A DNA stretch of 64,000 nt from a virus (taxonomy: Duplodnaviria; Caudoviricetes), in the IMG/VR virus record IMGVR_UViG_3300024346_000004; one strand, written 5' to 3'. Numbering within the stretch: the first letter of the stretch is position 1; each line of letters opens with the position of its first letter. A program made the position numbers and the translations under genes. Shown in pieces: positions 11,388-43,445 of the stretch. The notes beneath the pieces were generated by a model, which worked only from the letters and a program-made list of their open reading frames with translations, was not told the DNA's origin and did no database searches.

Positions 11388-12325
11388 TGTCAAACATATT
11401 TTTTACAAGAACAGAAAATTCAATTACTAATTCATTCAATGATTATAATATTAAATTTTCATTACTTTCCGCCCCAGTAAATTACATTATTCAAGAAGAC
11501 GAAATATCAGTATTTTATTTACGTGATAATTTTCTTGCTGTAGTCAAAAATGAAAATAATTCTTTTTACTACAGTTTGACTAATAACTCAAATATTTCTG
11601 TTACTGCTGGATTAGAAATAAATAATCTAAAAGGCTATTATTCATATTCTTCACAAAGACATGATCTGTATTTTGATGAGTTTAAAGTTGAATTATATTT
11701 AGATGATTGTTCTGCCGAAATTGAAGATTCAGGATTTATGCTATTACGAGCACAAAATGAATCATCAAGATTTTACATAAGATTCATTACACCTGAAATT
11801 CAAAGCTTATCATTTGAAGCAAAAGCATTACAAAATTCTGTTTTTGTAGAAGCTGGAATGAGAGAACCTGAATTTGCGATTGGTGTTTTTGATGATTCTA
11901 ACTTTACTAGACCAAGAGATGTAAGATTAGGTACTCCTGTAATTTCAACAGTACCAACATCAGGAACTACTACGACTACTGGAGAAAAAGACTCTATTGA
12001 ATTAGGTGAAGGTTTTCCAAGTAGAGTCATGCATTTTAAAATTGTATGCGACACTATCATTGAAACTGGTATGACAACAGGGTCTTTATCTGCTCTTAAA
12101 TTAAGTGTTTCAATGCCATCTGGATTAGATACAGTTAAGGAACCTGAATACGCTCCTATATATTTTGTTTCTTATTCTGCTGACAATACAACTTCTGTTT
12201 ATAGAGCATCTTTTGAGTTCTATAAAGAAGATACAATTAAATATGTGGACGGCTATCTTTACTTAGATGTTATTTGTCCTATGATTGTACAAAAGACATT
12301 ACCTATATCATTTGAAATAATCTAA
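11387..12325 (+). CDS. Hypothetical protein (312 aa)
   Basis: ORF is TAATG-coupled to the upstream gene. Confidence 0.7.
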   Translation: MSNIFFTRTENSITNSFNDYNIKFSLLSAPVNYIIQEDEISVFYLRDNFLAVVKNENNSFYYSLTNNSNISVTAGLEINNLKGYYSYSSQRHDLYFDEFKVELYLDDCSAEIEDSGFMLLRAQNESSRFYIRFITPEIQSLSFEAKALQNSVFVEAGMREPEFAIGVFDDSNFTRPRDVRLGTPVISTVPTSGTTTTTGEKDSIELGEGFPSRVMHFKIVCDTIIETGMTTGSLSALKLSVSMPSGLDTVKEPEYAPIYFVSYSADNTTSVYRASFEFYKEDTIKYVDGYLYLDVICPMIVQKTLPISFEII

Positions 12326-12353
12326 GGGTTTAATCATCCTTAAACAGAATAAT
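12325..12353 (+). promoter_or_regulatory. AGG-N18-AGAA promoter-like motif
   Basis: AGG gtttaatcatccttaaac AGAATAAT; the same motif recurs in other intergenic gaps. Confidence 0.6.
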
Positions 12354-12384
12354 TAGGTAATCAAAAATAAAACGGTGTTATTGA

Positions 12385-15300
12385 ATGCCTATAAAAGTTC
12401 AACTATTACTTCCAGACAATCTTAAGAGTTCTTATCTTCGGGCAAACTTTATTGAATCAGGCTCAGTTTATTCAACTAAAAAGCCTTCATTAAATTCAGC
12501 TATTGATAATAATAAACATACATTACAATTCAAATTTGAATTAACAGATAATGTCACAAGAGAACCTGTAGCCTTAAACAAGATTGTAAGTTTAAAAATT
12601 TCAAATGATCCTGAATTTTATTCAGCATCAACTGTTGAGCTTTTAAGCATTCCGTCAGATGGATCTTATTCATCCACTACTAATTATATAGTAAATCTAA
12701 ATCCAAATTACTTTTTTGGAACATCTCAAACATTAGAATCATCAAGATCTACTGCTGCTGGAGATGGTAGATTTATTGTAAATAATTGGCCACTATCTGC
12801 TACTGGCGGTCTGTCAACAGTTTATATGCAAGCTGTGGTTCAATCTGTCAGTGGTGATGAAGGTACTTATCCTGAAGGTTATGCTATTTATGATCAGATA
12901 GCATGGCAGGGTGAATTACCGTCAACTCCAGGAAGAGTATCATTATTATCTAACAATAGTGATTGGGTAGGCTCTCAGACATTAGCTCATTTCAAGCAAT
13001 CCTCTGATGCTTTTTCAGGTATCTCTTCTACTGGAGTTTCAAGCTATATTGGAGACTTTGTAGAATTTTTAGAAACAAACTTAAAATCTACAAGAGTTAC
13101 AACCACTGGCAATTTCAGAACTCTTGGCTCAAAATATGCAGCTACTTTATTATCTTTAACAGCCAATAGAGTAGATTATAATGGAGATAGCCCTACAACA
13201 GGCACTGGTGTTGCTATTGCATCTAATATAACATTAAATGCAGGTTCAGGTAGAGGAGCTTTATTAACTTCAGCTACATCTACTAGAACAACATCTACTC
13301 CGGGATATTTTACTCAAGGATATATTTCATTAGCTCTAAATACTAGTACATCAGAATATAGATACATTGGCAAGTTAATTGCTGGTGCTGAAAATATTAC
13401 AATAAAAATCACATCTGCTAATAATGCAGCTCCAGTGGCAGTACTATCAAGATCAGGTTCGGCTTTTACTCAAACAACTACACTACCTGAACATACAAGA
13501 TCATTATTTCTATTAGGTGGTCTATTTGAGATATTTGTAGCAAAAACAAGTGATTCACAATTAATTTGTTCAGCTTATTTCACAGCCACTGATAATCAAA
13601 GTTATTTGCTATGTGATTCTTTATTACCAGATTTTACAACCGATGTTATTTCATCTGCTTTTGGTGTTTCTATCAATGCAGCAGACGGAACAGCTAGAAT
13701 AGAAGAAATCTCACAAGCTATAGGTAGATCATGGTTGTCAGCTGATTTAGGTGATTGCGAGACAGAAGATTATCATCCTGTCAATTTCCCTGTAGTAAAA
13801 GTGGACAATTGGTTAACATCCGTAAATGTGGATGACGATTGGATTTATTATAACACAAATATATCCGTACCTACTAAAAACCCCGTATACACTTCATATT
13901 TGATTTTCCCCAAATTAGATAGTGGCGAAATTGCTGAATTACAATGTGGAAAACCAACTTTATCTTCTAGATTTAGATTGGATATGTCATTTACACATGC
14001 TAATAATATTTTATATACTTCATTCTCCACACAGCATACCCAGGAGCTAAATTCCGAAAATAATCAAAGACCAATGGTTTCTAGAACGATGCCTGGTTAT
14101 GTACCTTCTACAGAACCATTTGATTGTTCTACAGTAACGGTGTTTTTTGATGCTACTAGAAGAGAAATATATGCAGTAAGCAGATTATTTAATAATACTG
14201 TTAGCACACATGTTTTAGCAAGATATACCCCCGACACCACAGATACATTTTCTATAGAAATATCTGATACTAATCCAGTAGGTTCTGTAGGTATTACAAA
14301 TGATTCAGTAGCAAATGGTACATGGATTATTCTTAGAAAAAATAATTCTTTTGAAGGGTCCGTGCAATTATCTAATAAACTTTTACCACATGATTCTGGA
14401 TTAGGTTATTATTTTTCTATTGGTTGTTTGGCTAACACATTTGGTGATGTTTCTTCCAATACTATTGTTAGAAATTTAGCTGTTTATGGTTTACCTGAAT
14501 TAAACAGAGATGAAATTTTAGATCCAGTCAATACCAGACATTTCTTGAAATCTGATACAGGCACAACAAATGGTAAGCCATGGTTAGGCCAATATTTATT
14601 AGCAGGAGCTACCGATTTTGATAAGTGGGATTATGTAGTACCTGAGGCTAATGGTTATGAAATTCTGGTACAGGTAACTACTACCGGTAATAATATAATC
14701 GATACCGCTACGCCGTCTATAGTTGATGGATATACTGTTAAAGCTGGAGATGTAATTCTTGTTAAAGATCAAACAGAAATATCAGAAAATGGTTTATACT
14801 TGGTCATCAATGCTGGAACTAACGGTACATGGACTAAGCTTTCATATGGTTCTCCTTATCTTACAGGACAGAAAAATCAACCTATAAGTATTGTTAATGG
14901 AACTGTTAATGGTGGAACATTATGGTATTCAGATTATCCAGAAGGCCTTGTTTCTTCGACAAGTTTGATTTTTAAATCTACTGTATTTGCTAAAAGAATA
15001 GATTTTTCTTCTTTATCCGCTTTTTATTCTTCAATTAGCCCTACATTGATGGAGATTAAAGCATTATGGACATCAAGAAACTTACCAGCTGAAGCATTTA
15101 ATATAAAGTTTAGATTTTTTGCAGATAATATAAGTACAATTGGTAGCGCAAAAACAGATTGGTTTGAGCTAGACTTGAATCCTTTGAATACTACTGCTAT
15201 TTCTGGAGCTTATAATGAATTATTGCAGAAGATTTTGGTGTATTCTGATGCACAAACAGTTCCAGGTTTAGTATTTACAGAACCAGTAGAAGACCCTAAC

Positions 15301-18300
15301 GATCAAACAGATACTGGATCTAGACCTCTTACAATTACAAATAATGAAAAAGTTTGGTCTGCTATAAGAATGCCTATGGGATTCAAAATGGCAAGTGCTA
15401 TATCCAAAGAAACTACAGATCCAGAAATTATTGAATCTGGATCATATAGAGGATGGAATTTAGCTCCTAGACTATGGTTTAAGTTATTTGCTAAAGCCAC
15501 CCCTAGAGAAAGAAATAAAACTAATAATGTTATTCAGCAAGCAAGAACAAGAGCTTTTTCTCACGCTTTTGTCTCAGGCTCTGCTAATAATTTATCGTTA
15601 CCAAAAAAAGTAGATATAATAGCTCCAGCAGATACAGACAGTTTACGACCTACTATCTCAACAGTTATTGACCCATCAGTTAGATCTGCTGTACTTTCTA
15701 TCTTAGCAAATGACTCACAATCTGGAAATCTTGCTTTTAGAGTAGGAAAAGAAACAGATTATGGCATTGTTGAATATTCTCCATGGCAATCTTGGTCTCA
15801 GTATAATTTAGGTGGTACTACTAAATATTCTGTTTATTTATATGGCACTTCTAAAAAGAATCTATTAGGTTCCGTAGATGTTAATACTGCAAACTTAAAT
15901 GCTGGTATGATTGGTGCTAGAAAAGTCTGGGTTCAAGTCATAGATAGGGTTGGAAATATATCTGAATCTTATCCTCTAACATTATTTGCCCCAGGACTAT
16001 CTATTGTCGATACTACCGCTCCTTCTGGAACAGCAGAATTTTATAATACTACTACAGAATCAAAAGCAGAATATACTAACAAAACATGGAATTGGCTTAA
16101 GCTCGACACTCAGGATAGAGTTACTACAGTCAAAGATTTCCGTGTTAGAATTATCACAGCAAATGGTCCTGGAGGTTGGTCAAGCTGGAATTACTTAAAA
16201 GAATTCAATCCAGTATCTTTCACAGGATTACAAGAAGGCATTAGACAATTAGAAGTTCAATTTAGAGATTATGGAAATAATATATCTCCAGCACAAGATT
16301 TCTACTCACCATTAGTTAGTCAAGATAACCTTGTATTTGTTTCATCTACTGTGTGGCAAAAAACTTCAACAAATCTTGAATCAGCATATTTTGGCGGTGT
16401 CAAGCAACAAACATTTACTGGTATGAAATTAGTACCAGCAACCGGTTCGCAGTATACATCTCTTACTGCTTTTACATTATTGGATACTGTTACAGGAAGA
16501 ACACTTAATTTAAGAACAGTTGATAATTTGACAATCAATGGTACAGCAGTATCATACGTTATAGATTCTACTTCTGGCTTAATTATATTTGCTAGCGCTA
16601 TATCTAACTACTCTTCTGTTACTGTAAATGTAAGTAGAAATTCTGCTATCTTATATGAATGGGATAATAATACATTTTCACAAATTGCTGATCTTGGCAA
16701 TTATAATGAATTATGTATTACTAGTATGACATCTTATTCAGGTGGTATTGTTATCGGCACTGCTTCTGGAAATATTTATTTATATGATGGCAAGGTTATT
16801 TCTGGTAGTTATTTTACTGCACAAGATGTAATACGCTTACCGATTGCTTCTTTAAAGATCCATAGATTTGAACATGAAACAAATTCATATGTTTATGCAA
16901 GCACTGACAAAAAGCCTAGATTATATAGATGTTTAGTTGATGATTTGAAAACAGGATCATCTTGGGTTAGAGTAGCTTCTTCAGGAGATCTTGATTTATC
17001 TTCTGGTGGTGCTTTGTCAATGGTTTCATCATTCAATAAATTATTTATCGGATGTAGAAATTCAAAAATCTTAAGATATACAAGAACATCAAATAAATAT
17101 GCAACAGAATCTGAAATATTAGAGTCAAGTTTATTAGTATCACAAAATCTAGGGTTAAATGAAAGCACAAACTCTACAGCTATAACATTAAGCGTAGCAC
17201 CAAATTCTGTTATAGCCGGTATTTCTGAAAGACCTGAAATTTGGACATACTCAGAAGAATATGTAAATAATCCTGAATCATCTGATTTATGGACTAAAAT
17301 TAATTTTGATGAAATGTTTGTTCAAGATCCAGCTCCTGCACAATATTATTTCACAGATACAAATTACAAAGGCAATACTACACAAAGAATTTCATCTTAT
17401 ATTGGTCAAATTGGTCTGTATGATGAGTTTATGCCTGGTAAAAAGAAAGATTATTTAAAATTATCAGCTACTTCTTCAGGTATTTCTCTTTATGATTTTA
17501 GCTTAGGTACTGATTGGGAACAAATTATAAATGCAAATCAACCTGCTGTTCTATTAGATATTCCTGTAAAAGTTGCAACAACAATTAATGTAACCTTATC
17601 TGGTTTGCAATCCGTTGACGGTATATCTGTATTGAATAATGATAGAGTATTAGTCAAGAATCAAACTGTTCAATCAGAAAATGGTATATATGTTGCTTCT
17701 TCAGGTATTTGGGTTAGAGATGGCGATTTTAACCAATCATCAGGTTTAGTTTATAGAACAGGTGTATATGTCACATCCGGTTTGATAAATAGTAAATCAA
17801 CATGGATATTAACTTCCCAAGCTCCTTATGTATTTGGTACGACTGCATTTATTTTTGAAAAACCTAAATATACTATCGATATAGAAACACAAAATGTTTC
17901 AGGTACAGGTAAGCAGGGTGTTTCAGTTAGTGATTCATATTGGAATTATAATGTTAAATATTCTACTGCTGGATTAACAATTGATAGCGGTAGTAACAGT
18001 AAAACAGTATCATTCCCAAATATAGATGATTCATATTTTGTTTCTATGTCCGTTACTGACTCACAGCCAAATCCCAATAGTCAGCTAGTCAAAGCATGGA
18101 CATTTGCAAGCATTGGAGGTAATGAGGATACTGGGCCTTATTGGGGAACTGGTTCAACAGGTACATATGATGCTTGGTTTGCTGGTCCGTATGTCGTACC
18201 TGTCACATCTGGAACGATAACAAATACCGCAGGAACAGTTTTATCCGAATCAACATCCTCGGAAGCTTCTTTTACTACTACAAACTATTTTCTTAGAGTG

Positions 18301-19245
18301 TCTACGGATACATCACTTAAAAGTGGTAATCCAAAAGTAGTTTGGCAAAATACTGATATATATTCAAACAATGTAACTAATTTTTCTGTAAATACTACCA
18401 AGAGTATTGTAGTGGATAATATGTGTTATATCGAAATTAGATTAAAGACAGTATATTCATCAACTTTAAACACCAATAATTCCTCTGCTAAAATAAATCT
18501 TTATTATTCTAGCAACTCTGGACAAAATAAAAATTATATTTCTCAACCAATTGCTAACAATGAAGAATATAATACTTATAGGTTTAGACCATCTTGGAAT
18601 GGAATCGTAAATTACATAGCATTTGAATTTGCAGATTTTGATGTTATCCCAGCTAATTTTGATATTGATTATATCAAAATAATTAAAATAAATGGATATG
18701 CTTCAATAACGAGTGCACCTTCAAGAATCAGAATAGGTGTTGATGGGCGAGATTTATCTATTTGGCATGGTAATAACAACGAGCCATTATTCTATCAAAA
18801 GAATTTCTTAGATCTTAAATCTTCTCAAAAATCATTAAAATTTGGTAAATTAGATTCTGAAGATGGAGCTAGTGAATATATTTATGGTGGATTGAAATTT
18901 ACTGTAGGAAATGTTTATTCTCCAACTAAAATTAATATTAGTGATTTTCATATGACATGGAGATTCCCTTCTACTGGTGGTGTCAGACAATTAGTTCATC
19001 ACATGGGCTCTATATATGCTCTCACTGATGGATCTATCACACAAAGAAAATCTGATAACCCAGATGATAGACAAATGAAAACATTTAAATATGATAGCGG
19101 TAGAGAGGTATGGATATCTGAAACCAATTTCCATGCCAGAGAAATTATAAATAATGATCTATTAGGAGTGATTAGACCACTCACTTCTTTAAGTCATAAC
19201 GGCATAATGTTACTTTGTGGGCAGTATGGAAGTATTATTGAGTAA
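12385..19245 (+). CDS. Giant tail / baseplate protein (2286 aa)
   Basis: Two DxxLVKxQ...ENG tail motifs, repeated Ig-like modules (VWVQVIDRVGNIS, VQFRDYGNNIS) and propeller-like segments. Confidence 0.7.
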   Translation: MPIKVQLLLPDNLKSSYLRANFIESGSVYSTKKPSLNSAIDNNKHTLQFKFELTDNVTREPVALNKIVSLKISNDPEFYSASTVELLSIPSDGSYSSTTNYIVNLNPNYFFGTSQTLESSRSTAAGDGRFIVNNWPLSATGGLSTVYMQAVVQSVSGDEGTYPEGYAIYDQIAWQGELPSTPGRVSLLSNNSDWVGSQTLAHFKQSSDAFSGISSTGVSSYIGDFVEFLETNLKSTRVTTTGNFRTLGSKYAATLLSLTANRVDYNGDSPTTGTGVAIASNITLNAGSGRGALLTSATSTRTTSTPGYFTQGYISLALNTSTSEYRYIGKLIAGAENITIKITSANNAAPVAVLSRSGSAFTQTTTLPEHTRSLFLLGGLFEIFVAKTSDSQLICSAYFTATDNQSYLLCDSLLPDFTTDVISSAFGVSINAADGTARIEEISQAIGRSWLSADLGDCETEDYHPVNFPVVKVDNWLTSVNVDDDWIYYNTNISVPTKNPVYTSYLIFPKLDSGEIAELQCGKPTLSSRFRLDMSFTHANNILYTSFSTQHTQELNSENNQRPMVSRTMPGYVPSTEPFDCSTVTVFFDATRREIYAVSRLFNNTVSTHVLARYTPDTTDTFSIEISDTNPVGSVGITNDSVANGTWIILRKNNSFEGSVQLSNKLLPHDSGLGYYFSIGCLANTFGDVSSNTIVRNLAVYGLPELNRDEILDPVNTRHFLKSDTGTTNGKPWLGQYLLAGATDFDKWDYVVPEANGYEILVQVTTTGNNIIDTATPSIVDGYTVKAGDVILVKDQTEISENGLYLVINAGTNGTWTKLSYGSPYLTGQKNQPISIVNGTVNGGTLWYSDYPEGLVSSTSLIFKSTVFAKRIDFSSLSAFYSSISPTLMEIKALWTSRNLPAEAFNIKFRFFADNISTIGSAKTDWFELDLNPLNTTAISGAYNELLQKILVYSDAQTVPGLVFTEPVEDPNDQTDTGSRPLTITNNEKVWSAIRMPMGFKMASAISKETTDPEIIESGSYRGWNLAPRLWFKLFAKATPRERNKTNNVIQQARTRAFSHAFVSGSANNLSLPKKVDIIAPADTDSLRPTISTVIDPSVRSAVLSILANDSQSGNLAFRVGKETDYGIVEYSPWQSWSQYNLGGTTKYSVYLYGTSKKNLLGSVDVNTANLNAGMIGARKVWVQVIDRVGNISESYPLTLFAPGLSIVDTTAPSGTAEFYNTTTESKAEYTNKTWNWLKLDTQDRVTTVKDFRVRIITANGPGGWSSWNYLKEFNPVSFTGLQEGIRQLEVQFRDYGNNISPAQDFYSPLVSQDNLVFVSSTVWQKTSTNLESAYFGGVKQQTFTGMKLVPATGSQYTSLTAFTLLDTVTGRTLNLRTVDNLTINGTAVSYVIDSTSGLIIFASAISNYSSVTVNVSRNSAILYEWDNNTFSQIADLGNYNELCITSMTSYSGGIVIGTASGNIYLYDGKVISGSYFTAQDVIRLPIASLKIHRFEHETNSYVYASTDKKPRLYRCLVDDLKTGSSWVRVASSGDLDLSSGGALSMVSSFNKLFIGCRNSKILRYTRTSNKYATESEILESSLLVSQNLGLNESTNSTAITLSVAPNSVIAGISERPEIWTYSEEYVNNPESSDLWTKINFDEMFVQDPAPAQYYFTDTNYKGNTTQRISSYIGQIGLYDEFMPGKKKDYLKLSATSSGISLYDFSLGTDWEQIINANQPAVLLDIPVKVATTINVTLSGLQSVDGISVLNNDRVLVKNQTVQSENGIYVASSGIWVRDGDFNQSSGLVYRTGVYVTSGLINSKSTWILTSQAPYVFGTTAFIFEKPKYTIDIETQNVSGTGKQGVSVSDSYWNYNVKYSTAGLTIDSGSNSKTVSFPNIDDSYFVSMSVTDSQPNPNSQLVKAWTFASIGGNEDTGPYWGTGSTGTYDAWFAGPYVVPVTSGTITNTAGTVLSESTSSEASFTTTNYFLRVSTDTSLKSGNPKVVWQNTDIYSNNVTNFSVNTTKSIVVDNMCYIEIRLKTVYSSTLNTNNSSAKINLYYSSNSGQNKNYISQPIANNEEYNTYRFRPSWNGIVNYIAFEFADFDVIPANFDIDYIKIIKINGYASITSAPSRIRIGVDGRDLSIWHGNNNEPLFYQKNFLDLKSSQKSLKFGKLDSEDGASEYIYGGLKFTVGNVYSPTKINISDFHMTWRFPSTGGVRQLVHHMGSIYALTDGSITQRKSDNPDDRQMKTFKYDSGREVWISETNFHAREIINNDLLGVIRPLTSLSHNGIMLLCGQYGSIIE

Positions 19246-19247
19246 AA

Positions 19248-22820: not shown

Positions 22821-22823
22821 TAA

Positions 22824-31427: not shown

Positions 31428-31455
31428 AGGAACTTAGTATATAAACTAAGGAAAT
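31428..31455 (+). promoter_or_regulatory. AGG-N19-GGAAAT promoter-like motif with an internal inverted repeat
   Basis: CTTAGT-atataa-ACTAAG lies in the spacer; an AAGGAG RBS follows downstream. Confidence 0.45.
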
Positions 31456-31480
31456 TTTATAGTAGTACAAGGAGAATAAA

Positions 31481-32401: not shown

Positions 32402-32439
32402 CTGAGGAAGAGCAAGTCTCAAAATAAAAATGTACTCAG

Positions 32440-32476
32440 CTCTTCTCCAATGTAACTCATAAAAACTGGAGAAGAG
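32440..32476 (+). promoter_or_regulatory. Anti-Shine-Dalgarno hairpin
   Basis: CTCTTCTCCA (32440-32449) is the perfect reverse complement of TGGAGAAGAG (32467-32476), which contains the RBS of the gene at 32480. Confidence 0.6.
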
Positions 32477-32479
32477 AAT

Positions 32480-33615: not shown

Positions 33616-33622
33616 TATATGT
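33611..33622 (+). promoter_or_regulatory. Leaderless-type -10 element of dnaJ
   Basis: TATAAT followed by 6 nt and then the GTG start; no SD. Confidence 0.55.
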
Positions 33623-34624: not shown

Positions 34625-34634
34625 GGATAAAATT

Positions 34635-34850
34635 ATGTCAATGATTAAGCGAGCTACTGGATCTATTCAGTCTTTTACATCTGAAGAGGGCGTAGAAGAA
34701 GAGATTAAGGTTGTAGAATCTGATGAAACACAGCCAGCTCCACAATCTATTATTGTTAAAGATGTATTGGACATTCCATTAGTAACATCTATGGATTTAG
34801 ATATCAATGCTACTGATGAAAGTGATGATGTAGTAGCTAAGGACTGCTAA
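34635..34850 (+). CDS. Small acidic hypothetical protein
   Basis: GAGGA RBS; abuts the next gene. Confidence 0.7.
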   Translation: MSMIKRATGSIQSFTSEEGVEEEIKVVESDETQPAPQSIIVKDVLDIPLVTSMDLDINATDESDDVVAKDC

Positions 34851-35321
34851 ATGGATATACTTCAGCGAGCAGGTGTTCTTGATAAAATTATGAACACCTT
34901 ATATCATGTTGGTAAAGATCATATTATTTTAGTAATCAGCTTTATTTTAGCTGTTTTACTTCTTCCATTTATTGCAAAAAGATTTAAAACAGAATCTGAT
35001 TACGTATACAAAGTGTTATTGTTAGTCAAAAGTGTATTGGGTTCAAAACTTGGTACTAAAGGTCAAGTAATTTTAGATGCTTGGGCTGAAGGTATCAAAC
35101 GAGCTTCTGATGGTACATTTGATGGTGCTGACAAAGTTGATCAACTAATTAGATTTCTCAAAATCGTTGCATCTCAAAATAATATTGAATTATCAGAGAC
35201 AGATGTAGCTATTATTACTGAATTAGCGGAAACATCTCTTAGTATGCTTCAAGGCCAGAAAAAGATTGATATTGCAGTGGGTGTGGATAAATTTCAATCA
35301 ATGTCTCATGTAATTGCATAA
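34851..35321 (+). CDS. Membrane protein, holin LL-H-like
   Basis: One N-terminal TM segment; GADK...LK...IELSETDV..I.E resembles the LL-H holin pattern. Confidence 0.45.
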   Translation: MDILQRAGVLDKIMNTLYHVGKDHIILVISFILAVLLLPFIAKRFKTESDYVYKVLLLVKSVLGSKLGTKGQVILDAWAEGIKRASDGTFDGADKVDQLIRFLKIVASQNNIELSETDVAIITELAETSLSMLQGQKKIDIAVGVDKFQSMSHVIA

Positions 35322-35345
35322 ATCGCATGAGCATGATATTATTAT
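35314..35345 (+). promoter_or_regulatory. Sigma70-type promoter of the helicase gene
   Basis: TTGCAT (35314)-17 nt-TATTAT (35337) with a TGn extension; ATG is 9 nt downstream. Confidence 0.55.
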
Positions 35346-35351
35346 TGTGAA

Positions 35352-37163
35352 ATGGTTGAAATTCACGTAAACAATCACGCATGCTTTATTGTAGGGTCAT
35401 TTTCGGATGACCCTTTTTATTCTAATTCTGTACATAATGAAATCAAAAAAGCATTATCTTACAAAGTACCGAATCATGAATGGTCTGAAAAATATAAGCA
35501 AGGCATTTGGGATGGTACGATTTCAATTTATAATCGTAAGCTAAGTCAATTTCCAACAGGATTGCTTTATAGGGTTATTGGATTATTAGATGAGCTCAAT
35601 GTTGAGCATAAAATTATAGATAATCGTAAAAGACCTAAAAAGGTTTACCCTTTAACATTAGATTTAGGTAATCGTACATTAAGAGATTACCAAAAACTCT
35701 CAGCAGAAAAATTTGCAGAAACTGGCACTGGTATTCTTGCTTTAGCTACTGGTGCTGGTAAAACATTAACTTCTTGCTACTTGTTTACCCAAATACAAAC
35801 TTACCCTGTTGTATTTATTGTTCCAGCCTTAGAATTGCTTAATCAAACTCAAAAAGAATTTGAAAAGTATTTAAGATTAGATGGTAAACCAGTTAAGGTA
35901 GGGAAAATTGGTGGTGGTGTAGTTGATATCAATATGGAAGGTATCAATGTCTGCACTTATCAAACTATTCTTACAGCATACAATAAAAAATATAATGAAA
36001 AGCAATATAAGATTGTTGAATCTAAAGATGGCGATGGTCCTAAATCTACCGAACAACTTCAAAAAGAATTTGATTTAGCTACAAAAAAGTGGAAGATTTC
36101 AGAAAATAATGCAAAAAGAGATTTATCTACATTATCATTAAGTATAGAGAATACTCAAAAGCAGATAGAAATAGAACAAGATCCCAAAAAGAAGAAAACA
36201 TTAACTACTTCATTAGCTAATCTTGAAAAACAATATAATAAAGATTTCGCTTCTAAAGTTAAAGTTGATTTAGCAGCATATAAAAAAGCTCAAACTGCAT
36301 GGGATAATAGACAAAAGATATTATATGAAAAATCACAAGTAAGAGATCTTATTTCTTCATGTAAAGGCTTTATTGTAGATGAAGCGCATTTGGCTGCAGT
36401 AGTTGTAGAAGAATTAAGATCTTTTGCACAAGAAGCTTTTTATTGTGGCGGAATGTCAGCAACTCCATATCGAACAGACAATCAAGAAATTCGTATAGAA
36501 GGTGCTTTAGGCGGGAAAATATACGAAGTAAGTAATAGTGATTTAATCGATAGGAAGTTCTTAGTACCTCCCAAAATCTTTATGGTTGAGATAGAAGAAT
36601 TTTCAACACCTCAAACATATGCTGACGCTTATGAGCAAAATATTGTAAATTCTTGGGAAAGAAACTATAGAATTAAACAATTTGCCGAATCTTTCAAAGA
36701 GGCTGGTTTACCTGTATTAATTTTAGTTGAAAGAAGAGAACATGGATTTATATTAGAATCTATGATTGAAGATGCAGTATTTGTTCCTGGTGGTGATAAG
36801 GGTGAAATAGACCCAACAGATGAAGAAAAGAATTACCGCAGAAGAATGCTTAATTCTGTGGAAAATAATGAAATAGTATTGATAGCTACACAATGGGCCA
36901 ATACAGGTGTAGATGCCCCTAAAATAGCCACTTTAATCATAGCTGGATCTTGCGCTTCTCCAGTTACAACATATCAGCAAGTAGGTAGAGTTCTAAGATG
37001 TGTAGGGCGAGATGCTAATGAATCTACACTAAACGGTAAACCATATGCTGTAGTGATAGATTTTTATGATCAACACAAGAATCTTAAAACCCATTCTAAT
37101 ATGAGGAAAAGGGTTTATAGATACGAAAGATCATGGGATTTTAAAATGATAAAGGCTACATAG
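35352..37163 (+). CDS. SF2 DExH helicase (UvsW / Rad25-like)
   Basis: ATGAGKT, DEAH, SATP and QQVGRVLR motifs. Confidence 0.93.
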   Translation: MVEIHVNNHACFIVGSFSDDPFYSNSVHNEIKKALSYKVPNHEWSEKYKQGIWDGTISIYNRKLSQFPTGLLYRVIGLLDELNVEHKIIDNRKRPKKVYPLTLDLGNRTLRDYQKLSAEKFAETGTGILALATGAGKTLTSCYLFTQIQTYPVVFIVPALELLNQTQKEFEKYLRLDGKPVKVGKIGGGVVDINMEGINVCTYQTILTAYNKKYNEKQYKIVESKDGDGPKSTEQLQKEFDLATKKWKISENNAKRDLSTLSLSIENTQKQIEIEQDPKKKKTLTTSLANLEKQYNKDFASKVKVDLAAYKKAQTAWDNRQKILYEKSQVRDLISSCKGFIVDEAHLAAVVVEELRSFAQEAFYCGGMSATPYRTDNQEIRIEGALGGKIYEVSNSDLIDRKFLVPPKIFMVEIEEFSTPQTYADAYEQNIVNSWERNYRIKQFAESFKEAGLPVLILVERREHGFILESMIEDAVFVPGGDKGEIDPTDEEKNYRRRMLNSVENNEIVLIATQWANTGVDAPKIATLIIAGSCASPVTTYQQVGRVLRCVGRDANESTLNGKPYAVVIDFYDQHKNLKTHSNMRKRVYRYERSWDFKMIKAT

Positions 37164-37175
37164 AGTAGCCTTTAT
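37149..37175. terminator. Bidirectional hairpin terminator
   Basis: ATAAAGGCTAC-ataga-GTAGCCTTTAT, an 11-bp perfect stem spanning the helicase stop codon. Confidence 0.75.
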
Positions 37176-37177
37176 TG

Positions 37178-37252
37178 TTAGTCAACCTTGAAATTGAATA
37201 CAGCACTATATACTGCTTCAAGCAATTCTTCAAATTCTTTTAAGAATCTCAA
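37178..37252 (-). CDS. Putative 24-aa small protein MRFLKEFEELLEAVYSAVFNFKVD
   Basis: AAGGAG + 7 nt + TTG start, upstream TATAAT (37326-37321), terminator directly after the stop; an in-frame ATG at 37282 would give 34 aa. Confidence 0.5.
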   Translation of the reverse strand: MRFLKEFEELLEAVYSAVFNFKVD

Positions 37253-37351
37253 TGTCTTTCTCCTTCTTATATTATTTCCCATCAACGGAATATAAGATTC
37301 GACATTGAAACTTACATATGATTATACTGTACTGAATAGCATAACACCTAG

Positions 37352-37381
37352 AGGAAGCTATCTATTTTCTTAAAGAATATT
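37352..37381 (+). promoter_or_regulatory. AGG-N19-AGAAT promoter-like motif
   Basis: AGG aagctatctattttcttaa AGAATATT upstream of 37411. Confidence 0.5.
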
Positions 37382-37410
37382 ACTCTTATCAACAAAAAAA
37401 GGCATATATC

Positions 37411-37761
37411 ATGAGAACACAGACTATTGTTGGAAAACCTAAATCATGCTTAAACCGTAATTGTCATTCTCCATTTTATAAAGAGTCCCATTTAGGCTGG
37501 CTTCCGAAATCAGAAGTGGAAGCTTATGCAATTATGAGATGTCCGAAATGTAAGGATACTTTTGCTGTTGTCCAATTAATGTCCATGGTATATGAATATA
37601 AAAATTCATTACCTAAAGACCCTAATAATGAGTTTAATCCTTCTTCTATATCATCAACAGAAATCAATAATTTCAGAAAGAAATTAGATGATTCTGATGC
37701 TTTAAAGAAAATATTTGAAGGCTTATATCCTGGTGGTAGCCTTTTTGATCCTGAAGAATAG
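37411..37761 (+). CDS. Zn-ribbon protein
   Basis: CLNRNC and CPKC cysteine pairs. Confidence 0.7.
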   Translation: MRTQTIVGKPKSCLNRNCHSPFYKESHLGWLPKSEVEAYAIMRCPKCKDTFAVVQLMSMVYEYKNSLPKDPNNEFNPSSISSTEINNFRKKLDDSDALKKIFEGLYPGGSLFDPEE

Positions 37762-37791
37762 CTTGTATAATTGCCATAGAGGGTAATTATT

Positions 37792-39516
37792 ATGGCAGTA
37801 GTAGGCATTGATTTAGGAACAACAAATTCATTAATTTCTTATATTAACAAGAATGGCATCCCTGAAGTAATCCCAAATTCAATTGGTTTTCGCACTACCC
37901 CATCTATTATCAGCTTTACTCCTGAGGGCGAAATATTTGTCGGTAGGGAAGCTGTAGATAACGAAACTTATTATCCAGAAACTACTTTTAGATCTGTTAA
38001 AAGATTCATGGGTACTAATCATAGATTTAATGTCTATGAAAAGATATATTCCCCCGAAGAATTATCTGCAGAAATACTAAAGAAATTAAAACAAGACGCA
38101 GAAACATTTTTAGGCGAATCTATTGAAGGAGCTGTCATAACGGTACCAGCTTATTTTAACAATGATCAACGACAATCTACAAAAATAGCTGGTGAATTAG
38201 CGGGTTTAAAGGTTATGAGAATTATTAATGAACCTACAGCTGCTTCTTTATCTTATGGATTAGATAAAAGTATAAATCAAACTGTTTTAGTATATGATCT
38301 TGGCGGTGGTACTTTTGATGTAACTATTCTCAAGATTTCTGATGGTATGGATTTTCATGTATTATCAACTTCAGGAGATACAAATTTAGGTGGAGATGAT
38401 TTTGATATCGCAATTATTGAAATGATTGCTGATAAATGTAATATCAATAGTTCTGACCTAAACACTGAACAATATGTAAGAATTAGAGATGCAGCAGAAA
38501 AAGCTAAAAAAGATCTTACATTCAAGGACAGTACGAGAATCAATCTTCATTATTTTCATTTTGTAGATGACCGCCCACAAGATATTAGATGTATTATTAC
38601 TAGAGAAGAATTTAATGAAAAAATTGCACCATTTGTAGATAAAACAAAAAAATGTGTGTCTTCTGCAATTTTTGATGCGGGATTGAAATTTGCAGATATT
38701 AATGAAGTGGTATTTGTCGGAGGATCAACTAGAGTTCCCTTTATTACAGAAGAAATTAAAAAGCTTACTGGCAAAAATCCTAATAAAACAATTAATCCCG
38801 ATGAAGCTGTTTCTGTAGGAGCCTGTATTCAAGCTGATGTTCTTACTGGTAAATCCGATAAGATGGTATTTCTTTTAGACGTAACTCCATTATCTTTAGG
38901 CGTAGAAATACAGGGCGGATTAATGAATAAGATGATTAGTAGAAATACATCTATTCCAGCCAAGTATACAGAAGTATTTACTACAGCATACGATAATCAA
39001 GAAGAAGTAGATGTCAAAGTGTTTCAAGGAGAAAGACCTAGAACAGAAGACAATATTCTTTTAGGTGAATTCAAGTTAGACAATTTAAAGAAACAACCTA
39101 GAGGCGTTACTAAAATTGAAGTGACATTTGAATTAGATTCGGATGGTATTTTATCTGTCAAAGCCCAAGATGAAACTACAGGGAATCAAAAGGATATTGT
39201 ATTAACTGGACAATCTTCATTATCGTCAGACCAAATTAAAAAACTGTTAGAAGATTCAGAAAAATTCAAAGCAGAAGATGAAGAATTTATTTATCATAAA
39301 AATCTTGAATACACAATTAATGATTTGATTATGCAAGTGGAAGAATTAATTAGAGTTCAAAAAAATAATGATGAATTAAAAGATATTTTGAAATCCTTAC
39401 AAGAAGTATCTGATTTTAAGAATAAAGAATTTATTAACGGATTGATAGAATCTGTAAAGGAGGATATATTAGAGATAAGCGATTTAATTTACAAGAAAGC
39501 AAAATCTTTAGTATGA
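37792..39516 (+). CDS. dnaK: Hsp70 chaperone DnaK with a short C-terminus
   Basis: GIDLGTTNS, TVPAYF, RIINEPTAA, YDLGGGTFD, VGGSTRVP and LLDVTPLSLG; upstream TATAAT at 37766 and a GAGGG RBS. Confidence 0.97.
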   Translation: MAVVGIDLGTTNSLISYINKNGIPEVIPNSIGFRTTPSIISFTPEGEIFVGREAVDNETYYPETTFRSVKRFMGTNHRFNVYEKIYSPEELSAEILKKLKQDAETFLGESIEGAVITVPAYFNNDQRQSTKIAGELAGLKVMRIINEPTAASLSYGLDKSINQTVLVYDLGGGTFDVTILKISDGMDFHVLSTSGDTNLGGDDFDIAIIEMIADKCNINSSDLNTEQYVRIRDAAEKAKKDLTFKDSTRINLHYFHFVDDRPQDIRCIITREEFNEKIAPFVDKTKKCVSSAIFDAGLKFADINEVVFVGGSTRVPFITEEIKKLTGKNPNKTINPDEAVSVGACIQADVLTGKSDKMVFLLDVTPLSLGVEIQGGLMNKMISRNTSIPAKYTEVFTTAYDNQEEVDVKVFQGERPRTEDNILLGEFKLDNLKKQPRGVTKIEVTFELDSDGILSVKAQDETTGNQKDIVLTGQSSLSSDQIKKLLEDSEKFKAEDEEFIYHKNLEYTINDLIMQVEELIRVQKNNDELKDILKSLQEVSDFKNKEFINGLIESVKEDILEISDLIYKKAKSLV

Positions 39517-40097
39517 CCTCTTATGAATATGATAACAATTTAAGAACACAATATGGACCTTTAGTATGTGGCACTGATGAATGTGGTAGAGGTTCTTGGG
39601 TTTATTCTATTGTTGCAGCTAGTGTTGTAATGAAACCTGATTATTACAATGCTAAAATAAAAGATTCAAAGTTACTCTCGGAAAAATTGAGATCTCAATT
39701 ATATCAGGAAATTATTGATAATAGCCTATATTATAAAATAGTAGAAGCAGATAATCATTATATTGATAAATGGGGCATAAATAAAGCAAATATATATGTT
39801 ATGGAAGAATCTGCAAAAGAATCTAAAGCAAATATTTATGTAGTAGATCAATCACCGGCTTTTAGTTTAAATCCTTATCTTATGATGCCTAAAGCTGACA
39901 GTATTAGTTTTACTGTTTCATGTGCAAGTATTTTAGCTAAACATTATCATGACAGTAATTTAATAGAAATTGCAAAATCATATCCAGAATATAACTGGCA
40001 TAAAAATAAGGGTTATATTACAAAAGATCATAAAGAAGCTGTGATAAAATATGGTTTGTCCGATTTACATAGAAAGTCATATAAACTAAAATCATGA
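39513..40097 (+). CDS. rnhB: Ribonuclease HII
   Basis: GTDECGRG, KDSKLLS, ASILAK, NKGY and HRKSY motifs. Confidence 0.93.
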   Translation: MTSYEYDNNLRTQYGPLVCGTDECGRGSWVYSIVAASVVMKPDYYNAKIKDSKLLSEKLRSQLYQEIIDNSLYYKIVEADNHYIDKWGINKANIYVMEESAKESKANIYVVDQSPAFSLNPYLMMPKADSISFTVSCASILAKHYHDSNLIEIAKSYPEYNWHKNKGYITKDHKEAVIKYGLSDLHRKSYKLKS

Positions 40098-40498
40098 AGT
40101 TGTTTAATAATATTGGCATAGTATCTTCTTTTATTTGTGCAGTTCATTGTGCTATTACACCTTTACTATTAACTTTTTTACCGTTGTGGGGATTATCATT
40201 ATTAGCAGATAAAACATTTGAAGTTATTATGTTATGTTTATCTGGAATATTTGGAATACTTAATCTCTGTTTTGGTATTAAAAAACATAAATCATATAAA
40301 GCTTTAAGTTTATTTTCAATTGGATTCGGTCTGTCTGCAATTGGAAATATGTTTCACAGTCATATAGAAAATCATAAACATCACGAAATATTTGAACCAT
40401 ATATTCTTTTTCTAGTATTAGGCGGGATATTGATATGTATTTCTTATATTGTTAATTCTAAGCTTTGTAATTCTTGCAAGGTCTGTCATGTCAGATAA
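40094..40498 (+). CDS. MerC-family membrane protein
   Basis: S.ICAVHC..P motif, four TM segments and a His-rich loop. Confidence 0.8.
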   Translation: MKLFNNIGIVSSFICAVHCAITPLLLTFLPLWGLSLLADKTFEVIMLCLSGIFGILNLCFGIKKHKSYKALSLFSIGFGLSAIGNMFHSHIENHKHHEIFEPYILFLVLGGILICISYIVNSKLCNSCKVCHVR

Positions 40499-40994
40499 TA
40501 TTCCATCTAAATCTTTTAAAGAAAAAACCAACTCAGTAAATGAACTTGAGTTGGTTGATATAAGATTAGAAAAAATATTAATAGGTCCTAATGATAAGGC
40601 ATATGTGTTAATTGGTGATACTGAAAAAACAGTATGCTTTGAATTAAATTCTTTTGAAGGCAGTATGTTGTCTTTTGTTTATAAAGGCTTGCATACTAAT
40701 TCACATATACAAACAATACATCAGTTGTATATTAGATATTTGAAAGATCAGGGAACTAATCTTGAAAGGGTGGTAATTGAATCTAGAGCGGGAGATATTA
40801 CTTATGCTAGCTTAAGATTCGTTGATATCAAGCATAGAAGATATTATGCCATTTGTTCTTTAGGAGATGCTTTGATTCTTTCTTATTTAACAAAGTGCTC
40901 ACTCTCAGCAGTCAAAAAACCGTGGCTTACCTACGATCCTTATGATGACACCAATTATGAGCACTTTATTATAGATTTGTCCCCTGAAGACTAG
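40488..40994 (+). CDS. Bifunctional nuclease (DUF151) family protein
   Basis: THQL-like segment followed by LERVVI...TYASLRF...SLGDALIL; the ATG at 40488 is more plausible than the TTG at 40449. Confidence 0.7.
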   Translation: MSDNIPSKSFKEKTNSVNELELVDIRLEKILIGPNDKAYVLIGDTEKTVCFELNSFEGSMLSFVYKGLHTNSHIQTIHQLYIRYLKDQGTNLERVVIESRAGDITYASLRFVDIKHRRYYAICSLGDALILSYLTKCSLSAVKKPWLTYDPYDDTNYEHFIIDLSPED

Positions 40995-41001
40995 CGCTAA
41001 A

Positions 41002-42018
41002 TTAAGAAGTAGCGATCCAGCAGTAGAAGTCGAAGTCAACGGTTAATAACTGGTTAGTAACGTTGAATGCAGACTTTGTAACAACAGACTTGGAAAGGTT
41101 AACTGATGGAAGAAGGTTGGTCCATGTATTGTTCGAAGCATTATAGATTTCGAAGGTAAATGGAACGTTTTCTGAAACAGCAGCACCAGGAGTCTGAAGA
41201 GTAAGGTCTCCAGCAGTTGGTTCGTTAGTACCATAGGAAAGGTTGACAGATTCGTCAATACCTGCACCGTACTGGCTGAAGTAGTAGTCTCCGCCTCTGT
41301 CTTCAAGAAGAACAGCAGCTTTACCGGAACCTGAGATTTCTACACCAGTAATACCAAGGAATGGGAACTGAGCACCGAAGCGATAGGTCTTATTAGTACC
41401 TGGAACTTGGATTAATTCACCCTGTCCATCAGATGGCATACCATCGTCAGTTGCAGCAGCCTTAGGAATCAAGAAGAATGTTTCTTGAGTCTTTGACTGA
41501 ACCTTGAGGTTAGCTTCCATGATAAAGAATGTTCTACCACCAATGCTAACACGGAAGTCATAGAATCTTGCAACTCTTGTAGGACCACCAGCACTCAATG
41601 GGTTTAATTCATTGATTGGTAGGTTGGTTACCTGGAAGTAGTTAGCAAGAGTGGAGTCTGTAGAACCGTCCGATTTAAGGGTAAGGTCCACAGTAGCACC
41701 GGATTCTGAAACCTGGAAGTTTGCAGATTCAAGAATTGGTAATGTCGCAGTGGCTGGGGATAAGATTTCTGCAATCTTTGTGTTTGCGAGAGCTCTTCCG
41801 TCTTTGCCAGCTGCGCCACCAACAAGAATAGGAGCCTTAACTGTAATACTTTCAGATACACCACCAATGTCAAGAATTCTTGAAAGTGGAGTACCCTGAA
41901 TGAAGTTTTTGGCTTCTACTTGCATCGATCTATTTCTGTTTGCAGATTCTGCTACGTACTGCGAACCAGAAATCAAGAGCGACTTATAAACACCATATAG
42001 GTTGTTATTTAGAGGCAT
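41002..42018 (-). CDS. Highly expressed structural protein, probably the major tail tube
   Basis: Strong TTC/AAC/ACC/TAC codon bias unlike its neighbours; AGGAG RBS; own promoter motif; beta-rich two-half pattern. Confidence 0.55.
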   Translation of the reverse strand: MPLNNNLYGVYKSLLISGSQYVAESANRNRSMQVEAKNFIQGTPLSRILDIGGVSESITVKAPILVGGAAGKDGRALANTKIAEILSPATATLPILESANFQVSESGATVDLTLKSDGSTDSTLANYFQVTNLPINELNPLSAGGPTRVARFYDFRVSIGGRTFFIMEANLKVQSKTQETFFLIPKAAATDDGMPSDGQGELIQVPGTNKTYRFGAQFPFLGITGVEISGSGKAAVLLEDRGGDYYFSQYGAGIDESVNLSYGTNEPTAGDLTLQTPGAAVSENVPFTFEIYNASNNTWTNLLPSVNLSKSVVTKSAFNVTNQLLTVDFDFYCWIATS

Positions 42019-42040
42019 AATACTATCTCCTGATTTATTT

Positions 42041-42060
42041 CATTGTAATCATTTACAACG
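42041..42060 (-). promoter_or_regulatory. 5' UTR hairpin
   Basis: CGUUGUAA-AUGA-UUACAAUG forms 8 bp with one G:U pair on the minus-strand RNA. Confidence 0.4.
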
Positions 42061-42070
42061 TCTTATTTTT

Positions 42071-42099
42071 ATTTTTCTTCGAATATGTTTTTTTACCCT
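42071..42099 (-). promoter_or_regulatory. AGG-N18-AGAA promoter-like motif
   Basis: AGG gtaaaaaaacatattcga AGAAAAAT. Confidence 0.6.
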
Positions 42100-42119
42100 T
42101 TGTCGGTACTTTCATATTC

Positions 42120-43073
42120 TCAAATAGTGAATAAATTTCCTTGCATTAATGGAGCCCAAGGTGTTGTCATAGCGGTCCATTTTGTTTTTCTCATCAAAGT
42201 TTTTGCAGAAAGTGGAACTTCTGCTATATTAAACAATGGAGTGTTAAATCTAACCGATAGTGGACCTATATTAAAAATCATGTTTTCATTCACAATCCAT
42301 CCACCATGAATATGAGCATGTTGTTCCATTCCAACTCTCATTATTTCTTGTATATTCCCGCCCCACTTGACTGATTTTACACCTATCAAACCAATTTGAT
42401 CATTTCTAGTAGCAACAGTAGTAGTAATTGGCATTAAAAATGTTGGTGTGTCAATTTCATTTTCAATAGTCAATTCAAATGAGTTTAAAGTACGCATTTC
42501 TGATTGGAATCTATTAGCGTCAGTATCAACCCAACTTATAGCTCTTCCTAATAAAGTGTTTGAAGCTGGTGCAATATAATTCAAAGCACTTCTAACATCT
42601 ATCATTCCAATAAAAGAAATATTTAATTTTATATCTGTATTATCTGATGATCCTGATATTGTTAAACTTTTAATAACACAACTATCCAAAGATAATAATT
42701 CGTTATTGTTAGATCCACCATCTTCGCCTGTTGTAGAAAAGTGAGAAATAATATGATTAGTATCTATTCTCAAAGCAGTAGTAGGTTTTTCAGCATGTCT
42801 AAGTAGCTCAATCATTGCTGGCTCTAAAGCATTATTTCTATCTACTCGAATAGGGCATGTGATATTACCCTCAAATTTCTTAGCTCCTATATTAGCTATT
42901 GCACTCCCAGGACCACTTTGTATATATTGATGAGAAACATCTATATCCTGTGTTTGATTAATATTACATTCTTCTACAAAAAGATAATAATTATTTATAT
43001 TTAAGCTTCTTAGTAATAAACCTGTTGCAACTTCTAATCTATTTAAATTACCAGGATATGGCATATTTACCAC
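42120..43073 (-). CDS. Tail-tube-like protein, paralog of 41002-42018
   Basis: YIQSGPGSAIANIGAKKFEGNITCPIRV aligns with FIQGTPLSRILDIGGVSESITVKAPILV. Confidence 0.55.
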   Translation of the reverse strand: MVNMPYPGNLNRLEVATGLLLRSLNINNYYLFVEECNINQTQDIDVSHQYIQSGPGSAIANIGAKKFEGNITCPIRVDRNNALEPAMIELLRHAEKPTTALRIDTNHIISHFSTTGEDGGSNNNELLSLDSCVIKSLTISGSSDNTDIKLNISFIGMIDVRSALNYIAPASNTLLGRAISWVDTDANRFQSEMRTLNSFELTIENEIDTPTFLMPITTTVATRNDQIGLIGVKSVKWGGNIQEIMRVGMEQHAHIHGGWIVNENMIFNIGPLSVRFNTPLFNIAEVPLSAKTLMRKTKWTAMTTPWAPLMQGNLFTI

Positions 43074-43366
43074 CTAGAATTTTCAGCTTCGAAAATACCC
43101 TTCTGTGAGATAGCTATATCGCCGTAAGATTCCCATGTATATTTATATTTTCCAGTTTTATCAGCAAACCATTCAACATAAAAAATACCAGTAGCGCCAT
43201 TATTATGCTTTAATTCAGCATTTGTACCCCACGTATACTGTGTCAAAATTCCATCCGGGTCTGTCATAAAAAATCTTATGCCAATAGGATCAACTAATTC
43301 ACCAGTACGAAGTCTAATTTGTGCTTCAATTCTTACTGTTGAATTTGTATATATTTTTTGATTCAT
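43067..43366 (-). CDS. Small Ig-like structural protein (BppU-N-like)
   Basis: LVDP...TDPDG...TGIFY.....GKYKYTW pattern; GGAGG RBS. Confidence 0.65.
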   Translation of the reverse strand: MNQKIYTNSTVRIEAQIRLRTGELVDPIGIRFFMTDPDGILTQYTWGTNAELKHNNGATGIFYVEWFADKTGKYKYTWESYGDIAISQKGIFEAENSRW

Positions 43367-43386
43367 TCTTTGCTACCTCCATTCTT

Positions 43387-43415
43387 ATATTTCTAGAGAT
43401 TTAAGCTTATGTCCT
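43387..43415 (-). promoter_or_regulatory. AGG-N18-AGAA promoter-like motif
   Basis: AGG acataagcttaaatctct AGAAATAT, immediately after a terminator. Confidence 0.6.
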
Positions 43416-43445
43416 AAAAAGAAAAAACCCATCCTAAGATGGGTT
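43416..43445 (-). terminator. Rho-independent terminator
   Basis: AACCCATC-ttag-GATGGGTT followed by TTTTCTTTTT on the minus strand. Confidence 0.85.

Follow-up and report, generated by a model that had tools for sequence, protein, structure and literature searches.

A number of bacteriophages are known to take over the RNA polymerase of the host through cascades of sigma factors, such as gp28 and gp33/34 of SPO1, the homologues of these proteins in SP10, and gp55 of T4. Here, a 64,000-nucleotide (nt) window from an uncultured virus of the Caudoviricetes (IMG/VR record IMGVR_UViG_3300024346_000004) was analyzed, in which a motif of two boxes, AGG and AGAA, set 18 or 19 nt apart, recurs ahead of genes on both strands. 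Most likely, these sites represent promoters of the SigH type, used by the host core RNA polymerase together with a phage-encoded sigma factor of the SigH family, a reading in which we have fair confidence. As in the cascades of SPO1, SP10, and T4, a phage sigma factor made earlier would retarget the host core enzyme to a phage promoter class of later genes, while early genes keep promoters of the sigma-70/SigA type. The difference lies in the candidate sigma factor, which here is of the cellular SigH family, and in promoters that resemble cellular SigH promoters; the promoter consensus sequences of SPO1 and T4 are unrelated to the motif.

Phage genes resembling the developmental sigma factors of Bacillota have been described before. 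SigF/G-like genes occur in the Bacillus phages SP10, Goe3 and others, in a study that mentions SPO1 as well as SP10 (PMC9429907), and a “sporulation-specific sigma factor” is listed for phage G (PMC12484599). Such sporulation-like genes have been discussed as auxiliary, with an effect on the dormancy of the host, and g120 of SP10 is dispensable. In contrast, the matching promoter class described here precedes the structural and assembly genes of the phage itself, which suggests that the class is central to transcription of the phage. Phage G has neither a homologue of the SigH-like sigma factor nor an enrichment of the motif.

Placement and conservation of the motif

Each site is named by P and the coordinate of the first base of its AGG. 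All six sites that the first-pass annotation had placed were borne out when the sequence was read, namely AGG-N18-AGAA at 12325 (+), 42099 (−), and 43415 (−), AGG-N19-RGAA at 31428 (+) and 37352 (+), and a variant, AGG-N18-ATATAAT, at 45007 (−). Its description of the sites as oriented toward the downstream gene and lying approximately 20–55 nt from the start codon also holds, with 35, 27, 33, 56, 24, and 23 nt, in coordinate order, between the second box and the start codon, a range of 23–56 nt.

For comparison, eight syntenic relatives of the window were retrieved by a search of IMG/VR, two of which, G1 (358 kilobases (kb), 33.7% guanine plus cytosine (GC)) and G2 (379 kb, 40.6% GC), are near-complete contigs. 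The major capsid protein of G1 is 49% identical to its counterpart in Bacillus phage G, and the window phage is therefore regarded as an uncultured jumbo phage that is distant kin of phage G. A megablast search with 14 kb of the window gave no match among GenBank phages, and a 34-mer taken from the window had no exact match in IMG/VR.

The first-pass annotation had further expected the motif to be enriched upstream of genes relative to shuffled AT-rich DNA, an expectation that was borne out; the bare frequency of the pattern is not remarkable. Across the window, AGG-N18-AGAA occurs 15 times, compared with 8.5 ± 2.9 after shuffling (at least 15 in 3 of 100 shuffles), while AGG-N19-RGAA, with 14 occurrences vs. 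13.5, displays no excess. Five of the six sites are five of 31 pattern matches counted in the window, P45007 being a variant outside the pattern, and a matrix scan of the entire window gave 44 matches vs. 34.7 ± 5.8 under a Markov model, again no excess. A different picture was obtained when a matrix trained on G1 only was applied, at a threshold of at least 11 bits, to the 12 upstream regions of the window (1016 nt). Sense matches were found in five of the 12 regions and antisense matches in none, compared with a mean of 0.26 and a maximum of 2 in 200 shuffles. The five sites matched were P12325 (14.7 bits), P31428 (13.5 bits), P42099 (11.8 bits), P43415 (12.4 bits), and P45007, the last scoring 11.2 bits with a spacer of 20 nt and ATAATAAT as its second box. 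The signal in the window is one of position and orientation, not of pattern frequency, as for a promoter of low information content.

An unbiased screen of G1 led to the same motif. All dyads of a 3-mer and a 4-mer separated by 14–22 nt, approximately 147,000 in number, were counted in 223 upstream regions, and the top dyad was AGG-18-AGAA, present in 15 regions against 2.4 expected and in three in the antisense direction. In the structural region of phage G (30% GC, 36 upstream regions), used as a negative control, two matches were found vs. 1.1, that is, no enrichment, which indicates that the placement of the motif is not general to AT-rich intergenic DNA of phages. In G2, enrichment with the G1 matrix was modest (13 sense, 6 antisense, and 3.1 after shuffling). 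The strongest upstream dyads of G2 belong to a different repeat, TCCC followed after approximately 17–22 nt by ATCGGATATA, which is present in 20–36 regions vs. approximately 1–3 expected. Part of this repeat forms a palindrome (ATCCG...CGGAT), and its candidate identities are a further promoter class, a terminator, and a repeat family.

The refined two-block matrix, built on the upstream regions of G1 from 53 sites, describes the motif as (A/T)AAAGG(A/T)(A/T), a free spacer, and AGAA(A/T)A(A/T), with the consensus AAAGG-N18(19)-AGAA(T/A)A. The spacer is 18 nt long in 41 of the 53 sites, 19 nt in five, 20 nt in four, and 17 nt in three. In the upstream box, A, G, and G are present in 51, 44, and 49 sites, respectively, and the two positions before it (−1 and −2) are A in 32–33. 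In the downstream box, A, G, A, and A are present in 38, 43, 49, and 51 sites, respectively, after which A and T are almost equally frequent (25/24) and are followed by A in 45 sites.

The conservation of the sites was assessed in three orthologous gaps, those before the protease, 338-amino-acid (aa), and Zn-ribbon genes, in seven lineages with proteins that are 30–65% identical. When the gaps were aligned at the boxes, no variation was seen in the A and the second G of AGG or in the AA of xGAA. The two middle Gs of the boxes reach an identity of 0.84–0.90, and the GAA columns lie at 0.9–1.0. The columns beside the boxes are mostly 0.3–0.6 identical, with two A-rich columns at approximately 0.8, and identity in the flanks is 40–50%. 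In all of the gaps compared, AGG or AAG is followed 18–19 nt on by the second box at a nearly constant distance from the ATG, and this second box is xGAA everywhere in the three gaps except for ATAA in the protease gap of lineage L006. In the protease gap, which corresponds to P31428, AGG lies 51–56 nt from the ATG in seven of seven lineages, with xGAA 18–19 nt on in six. Ahead of the 338-aa gene, the gap of P42099, AGG-N18-xGAA is present in seven of seven at 81–90 nt from the ATG. In six relatives, the site orthologous to P37352 by position is A[AG]G-N18-[AG]GAA, 51–60 nt from the ATG, where the base after [AG]GAA is T in five and C in L007. This last lineage also carries AGG-N18-AGAA ahead of the orthologue of the P43415 gene and AGG-N18-AGAATACA ahead of that of the P45007 gene. 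The earlier proposal that the protease cluster and the Zn-ribbon gene are part of the regulon agrees with these data, both lying behind such sites and the sites being conserved in relatives.

Probable SigH-type promoters and a candidate sigma factor

The phage sites were compared, by reading, with the SigH promoters of Clostridioides difficile (n = 40), which were assigned by transcriptome analysis and 5′-end mapping (PMC7438776, Table 3), the published consensus omitting two low-scoring promoters of the 40. These promoters consist of AAAGG(A), a spacer of 17–18 nt, and (A/C/G/T)GAA(T/A), mostly AGAAT (PMC7438776). Shared by both sets are the AGG core preceded by A, the −10 box xGAA(T/A), and an AT-rich unconserved spacer. 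The resemblance to the sigma-H consensus that had been proposed at first pass is therefore upheld, as AAAGG-N18(19)-AGAA(T/A)A in the phage vs. the mapped AAAGG-N17/18-AGAA(T/A) in C. difficile. Judged by sequence, both the −35 box of a SigH-type promoter of Bacillota, AGG in an A-rich context, and its −10 box, xGAA(T/A), appear to be present. The genes that follow are different, since the phage sites head virion, lysis, chaperone, and protease genes, while SigH of Bacillota serves sporulation and transition-phase genes.

The sequences in Table 3 of that study end at the mapped start, and their last bases for spoIIAA, spo0A, and sigA2 match Table 2; transcription starts 12–14 nt past the first base of the −10 box (PMC7438776). 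If the starts of the phage sites are placed as in C. difficile, leaders of 14–48 nt are predicted in the window, with a Shine-Dalgarno sequence within each.

A related arrangement was observed when matrix matches of at least 11 bits in G1 (L035–L052), G2 (L016–L034), L001, and L065 were surveyed for ATG frames of at least 60 codons. An ATG is located exactly 13 or 14 nt past the first base of AGAA in 21 cases (nine and 12, respectively), while other offsets from 5 to 59 occur approximately twice each. Examples are located at 289849 (−), 61590 (+), and 137894 (+) in G1 and on the minus strands of G2 and L065, and none of the six sites of the window is of this type. Because the offset equals the mapped start position of C. 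difficile SigH promoters, these genes would be leaderless, with no room for a ribosome site. The N-terminus MWY(K/R/S) is found in five of the 21. We tentatively suggest, as a possibility that is more doubtful than probable, that in a subset of the SigH-type promoters of the clade transcription starts at the A of the ATG, giving leaderless mRNAs without a ribosome site, many of which would encode proteins with an MWY(K/R) N-terminus. Promoter class and translation mode would then be coupled, and the conserved ATGTGGTA start might be partly a nucleotide signal for leaderless initiation, not only a “capsid-targeting tag” of the protein.

The distribution of the sites in G1 points to two promoter classes. 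Among 238 upstream regions, 49 carry a SigH-type site and 22 a sigma-70-like site (five in shuffles), and none carries both, compared with approximately 4.5 by chance. The sigma-70-like sites are concentrated at 120–200 kb, and the SigH-type sites are spread over the remaining genome. In the head module at 40–60 kb, where the genes for capsid and portal are located, five SigH-type and zero sigma-70-like sites are present. PHROGs names few of the G1 genes downstream of the motif, and those named are endolysin, fibre, virion protein, head-protease-like, tail protein, PhoH, and HNH genes. Within 31000–45200 of the window, sigma-70-like sites were not enriched (78 vs. 72). From their sequence context, the SigH-type sites appear to form a class separate from the host-type class, one that heads virion genes in G1 and giant fibre-like genes in the window. 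This fits a non-early, largely virion class, the timing of which may be late.

A search for a phage sigma factor, which had been proposed as a check, was run in the relatives and was successful, with a SigH-like sigma gene in G1, G2, and a 337-kb contig. Sigma-like genes number four in G1 and three in G2. One in each (227–230 aa) has the SigH models TIGR02859 and NF006145–NF006148 as its best NCBIfam matches, with E-values of 1e-30 to 1e-32 and 102–112 bits over residues approximately 10–207; the next family is a generic sigma-70/ECF model with an E-value of 1e-14. More than 200 metagenome proteins are 70–100% identical to this sigma factor, with hardly any variation in regions 2 and 4.2, and the G2 copy is approximately 53–56% identical. 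The cluster to which it belongs is named “sporulation-specific sigma factor” by the Joint Genome Institute (JGI). In the 337-kb contig, the gene is placed among replication genes, in the order dnaX, sigH-like, purA, further genes, and a second sigma gene, adjoining the genes for ribonucleotide reductase and dUTPase. No homologue was found in the records of cultured phages, phage G included; the only hits in phage records are approximately 32% identical, in short Listeria-phage and faecal phage records. The candidate reader is also approximately 32% identical to a cellular SigH.

Scanning metagenomes with an alignment of the sigma factor gave 80 loci, several of them in sister samples of those in which this phage is present, and none of the loci was tied to the genome of the window. 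Judged by synteny with G1, the gene of the window phage would be approximately 240 kb away from the Hsp70-like gene and thereby probably outside the contig. RNA polymerase beta/beta-prime domains were not detected in G1 or G2, although a very divergent enzyme of the phiKZ type could escape the models, and a search of G1 and G2 for a T7-type polymerase gave no match, but its positive control was also silent. A phage-encoded reader of the motif is plausible, and the motif may be assigned to the SigH-like sigma factor by analogy with cellular families.

Which sigma factor may read the sites

In the mechanism proposed, the sites would act as bipartite promoters of an alternative sigma factor, with a −35 box (A/T)AAAGG, a −10 box AGAA(T/A)A(A/T), and an unconserved spacer of 18 nt, or at times 19 nt, that separates AGG from AGAA, and would be read by host core RNA polymerase loaded with the phage SigH-family sigma factor. 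Located in the replication cluster, the sigma gene is presumably expressed early, after which the SigH-type class would activate non-early genes. In the window, the targets would be the giant fibre-like genes, the protease/chaperone cluster, the Zn-ribbon/Hsp70-like unit, and three small minus-strand units. P12325 and P31428 would add transcripts within long co-directional gene runs, since both lie at the preceding stop codon with no terminator between the stop codon and the site.

Several observations weigh against this mechanism. The motif is low in information, and genes contain matches that are just as good at the rate expected by chance. A G at −1 and a 19-nt spacer bring P37352 below the threshold of the G1 matrix, and the best match in its region, 5.5 bits, lies at another place. 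The spacer has its mode at 18 nt; its range overlaps that of the C. difficile table, in which 17 nt was counted most often and 18 nt many times, but is shifted by approximately one base. Chaperone genes, the helicase gene, and the RNase HII gene of the window also lie behind sites of the class, the last two being atypical late functions. The sigma factors of G1 and G2 do not reach the SigH equivalog cut-offs of 208–295 bits; they are SigH-like, not SigH equivalogs, and lie so far below the cut-offs that specificity is not simply transferable from bacterial SigH. Furthermore, the gene was seen in relatives only, a sequence look-up having matched other genomes only, and the two or three further sigma-like genes of the relatives are possible alternative readers.

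Some of these observations bear on rival readings. It is unlikely, though worth weighing, that SigH of the host itself reads the sites, alone or with a phage factor, so that late transcription would be tied to the transition or stationary state of the host. The boxes are almost identical to those of cellular SigH promoters, strong ribosome sites of the GGAGG type fit a host that could own SigH, and the phage gene was seen only in other genomes. However, a well-conserved SigH-like sigma factor within the replication cluster of G1, G2, and the 337-kb contig would be redundant if host SigH sufficed, and the preference for a spacer of 18 nt rather than 17 nt is a further departure. The multiple sigma-like genes of the relatives (four in G1, three in G2), together with an assignment made by analogy, leave some room for a different phage sigma factor, whether the ECF-like protein of 191 aa, the SigB/F/G- or FliA-like protein of 189 aa, or the 188-aa protein beside the SigH-like gene. 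ECF promoters have the boxes AAC / CGT and FliA promoters TAAA / GCCGATAA. Those of SigF/G are GYATA / GGnnAnAHTR (PMC11599450). All three are unlike AAAGG / AGAAT, the SigH consensus is alike, and the chance of such a reader is accordingly rated as slight.

The motif could, in principle, be another kind of oriented signal, such as the binding site of an activator or repressor or an RNA element in the 5′ leader, and with two of the sites abutting stop codons a role in coupling or processing is conceivable. We regard this as improbable. Two short boxes at a fixed distance of 18 nt, separated by a free spacer and in every case preceding the ribosome site, have the anatomy of a sigma-70-family promoter, an Rfam search of the whole window gave no family match, and the ATG found 13–14 nt past the second box 21 times in relatives coincides with the SigH start position. 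A chance pattern in AT-rich intergenic DNA, chosen after the event, has the least to recommend it and is very improbable. The motif was defined by eye and its bare pattern is at chance level window-wide, but the independent test with the G1-trained matrix, its rank as the top dyad in the unbiased screen, the invariant boxes in orthologous gaps, and the lack of enrichment in AT-rich phage G all speak against such an origin. A phage SigH-family sigma factor on the host core enzyme remains the preferred reader.

Gene units of the window and implications for the clade

The window has a GC content of 32% and is coding nearly throughout. LamG and PA14 domains are carried by the giant genes that form its two arms. 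Between the arms lie genes for an S8 protease, an S26/S24-like peptidase, a trypsin-like protease, DnaJ- and Hsp70-like proteins, a helicase, RNase HII, and an HNH protein. The left arm runs from 240 to 12325 without an internal gap, and its promoter must be located upstream of the window. P12325 (12320–12353, plus strand) has its AGG at 12325–12327, overlapping the TAA stop of the preceding gene, a spacer of 18 nt, and the −10-like box AGAATAAT at 12346–12353. Transcription is predicted to start at approximately 12358–12360, 25–27 nt ahead of the ATG at 12385. The unit behind it (12385–31427, plus strand) consists of giant genes of 2286, 1190 (with a PA14 domain), and 2867 aa without internal gaps. 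The top matrix score of the window, 15.3 bits, is located at 22229 (+) within the 1190-aa gene, 595 nt ahead of the 2867-aa gene. An internal promoter at this place is conceivable, but the match was not counted as one, and the high scorers inside genes (22229+, 11174−, and 13872−) were rejected as promoters since the number of in-gene matches equals chance expectation.

At the end of this unit, a TAA stop at 31425–31427 immediately precedes the AGG of P31428 (31423–31457, plus strand; AGG 31428–31430), which is followed by a spacer of 19 nt and GGAAATTT at 31450–31457. The predicted start, approximately 31462–31464, is immediately ahead of the ribosome site, AAGGAGA, that belongs to the S8 protease gene. 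The unit behind it (31481–37163, plus strand) holds the genes for the S8 protease, the S26/S24-like peptidase, the trypsin-like protease, and the DnaJ-like protein, two small genes, and the helicase gene. Upstream of the helicase orthologue in L001–L006 and L008, at approximately 7500–7600, an extended −10 box of the TGGTATACT or TGTTATAAT type comes after a perfect hairpin that has a T run (AACCATTTTGTTG...CAACAAAATGGTT), the layout of a terminator and a host-type promoter. The window does not have this layout, because its gap at 35322–35351 is 30 nt only.

The weaker site P37352 (37347–37381, plus strand) has its AGG at 37352–37354, a spacer of 19 nt, and AGAATATT at 37374–37381, and a sigma-70-like TCGACA-18-TATACT is present closely upstream at 37299–37328. 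The predicted start of P37352 is approximately 37386–37388. Behind P37352 lies a unit (37411–40994, plus strand) with the Zn-ribbon, Hsp70-like, RNase HII, and MerC-like genes and a 168-aa gene. In the same helicase/Zn-ribbon gap, a conserved antisense micro open reading frame of approximately 24 codons is located on the minus strand at approximately 37178–37252, with a TTG start behind AAGGAGA and the product MRFLKEFEELLEAVYSAVFNFKVD; the JGI gene call there is 34 aa long. A comparable peptide (MRIFEQLEEMMNQV...) is encoded behind AAGGAGG in relatives.

Three units on the minus strand fill 41002–44956, namely 44956–43467 behind P45007, 43366–42120 behind P43415, and 42018–41002 behind P42099. 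The variant site P45007 (44977–45012) has its AGG at 45007–45005 and, after 18 nt, ATATAATAAT at 44986–44977, with a predicted start at approximately 44974–44970; it heads genes for a 134-aa protein, the HNH protein, and an 84-aa protein. This unit is ended by a hairpin at 43445–43426 that resembles an intrinsic terminator, with eight pairs, four of them G-C, and then TTTTTCTTTTT, immediately ahead of P43415. In P43415 (43387–43420), the AGG at 43415–43413 is followed after 18 nt by AGAAATAT at 43394–43387; the predicted start is near 43382–43380, ahead of 99-aa and 314-aa genes. P42099 (42071–42104) has its AGG at 42099–42097, an 18-nt spacer, and AGAAAAAT at 42078–42071, and a start at approximately 42066–42064 is predicted to leave a leader of 46–48 nt to the ATG of the 338-aa gene at 42018. 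Elsewhere in the window, the apparent gap of 646 nt at 52228–52873, upstream of a 2401-aa gene, has no SigH-type site, its best match being 5.6 bits.

Taken as a whole, this looks like a new example of a phage that redirects the host RNA polymerase with its own sigma factor, and the promoter class looks real in an uncultured giant phage of fresh water. The result is a working transcription map for a widespread clade of uncultured freshwater jumbo phages, in which host-type promoters head a presumably early block, the SigH-type class lies ahead of genes for the virion, for lysis, and for assembly, and the conserved phage sigma factor is the likely switch between the two classes. The promoter matrix is usable for predicting operons, the timing class of genes, and genes that are probably leaderless in genomes of the clade. 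The SigH family of the sigma factor also hints at a host whose core polymerase accepts such a factor. As for the “sporulation sigma” genes of large phages, the gene here seemingly serves the program of the phage itself and is not a tool acting on host dormancy.

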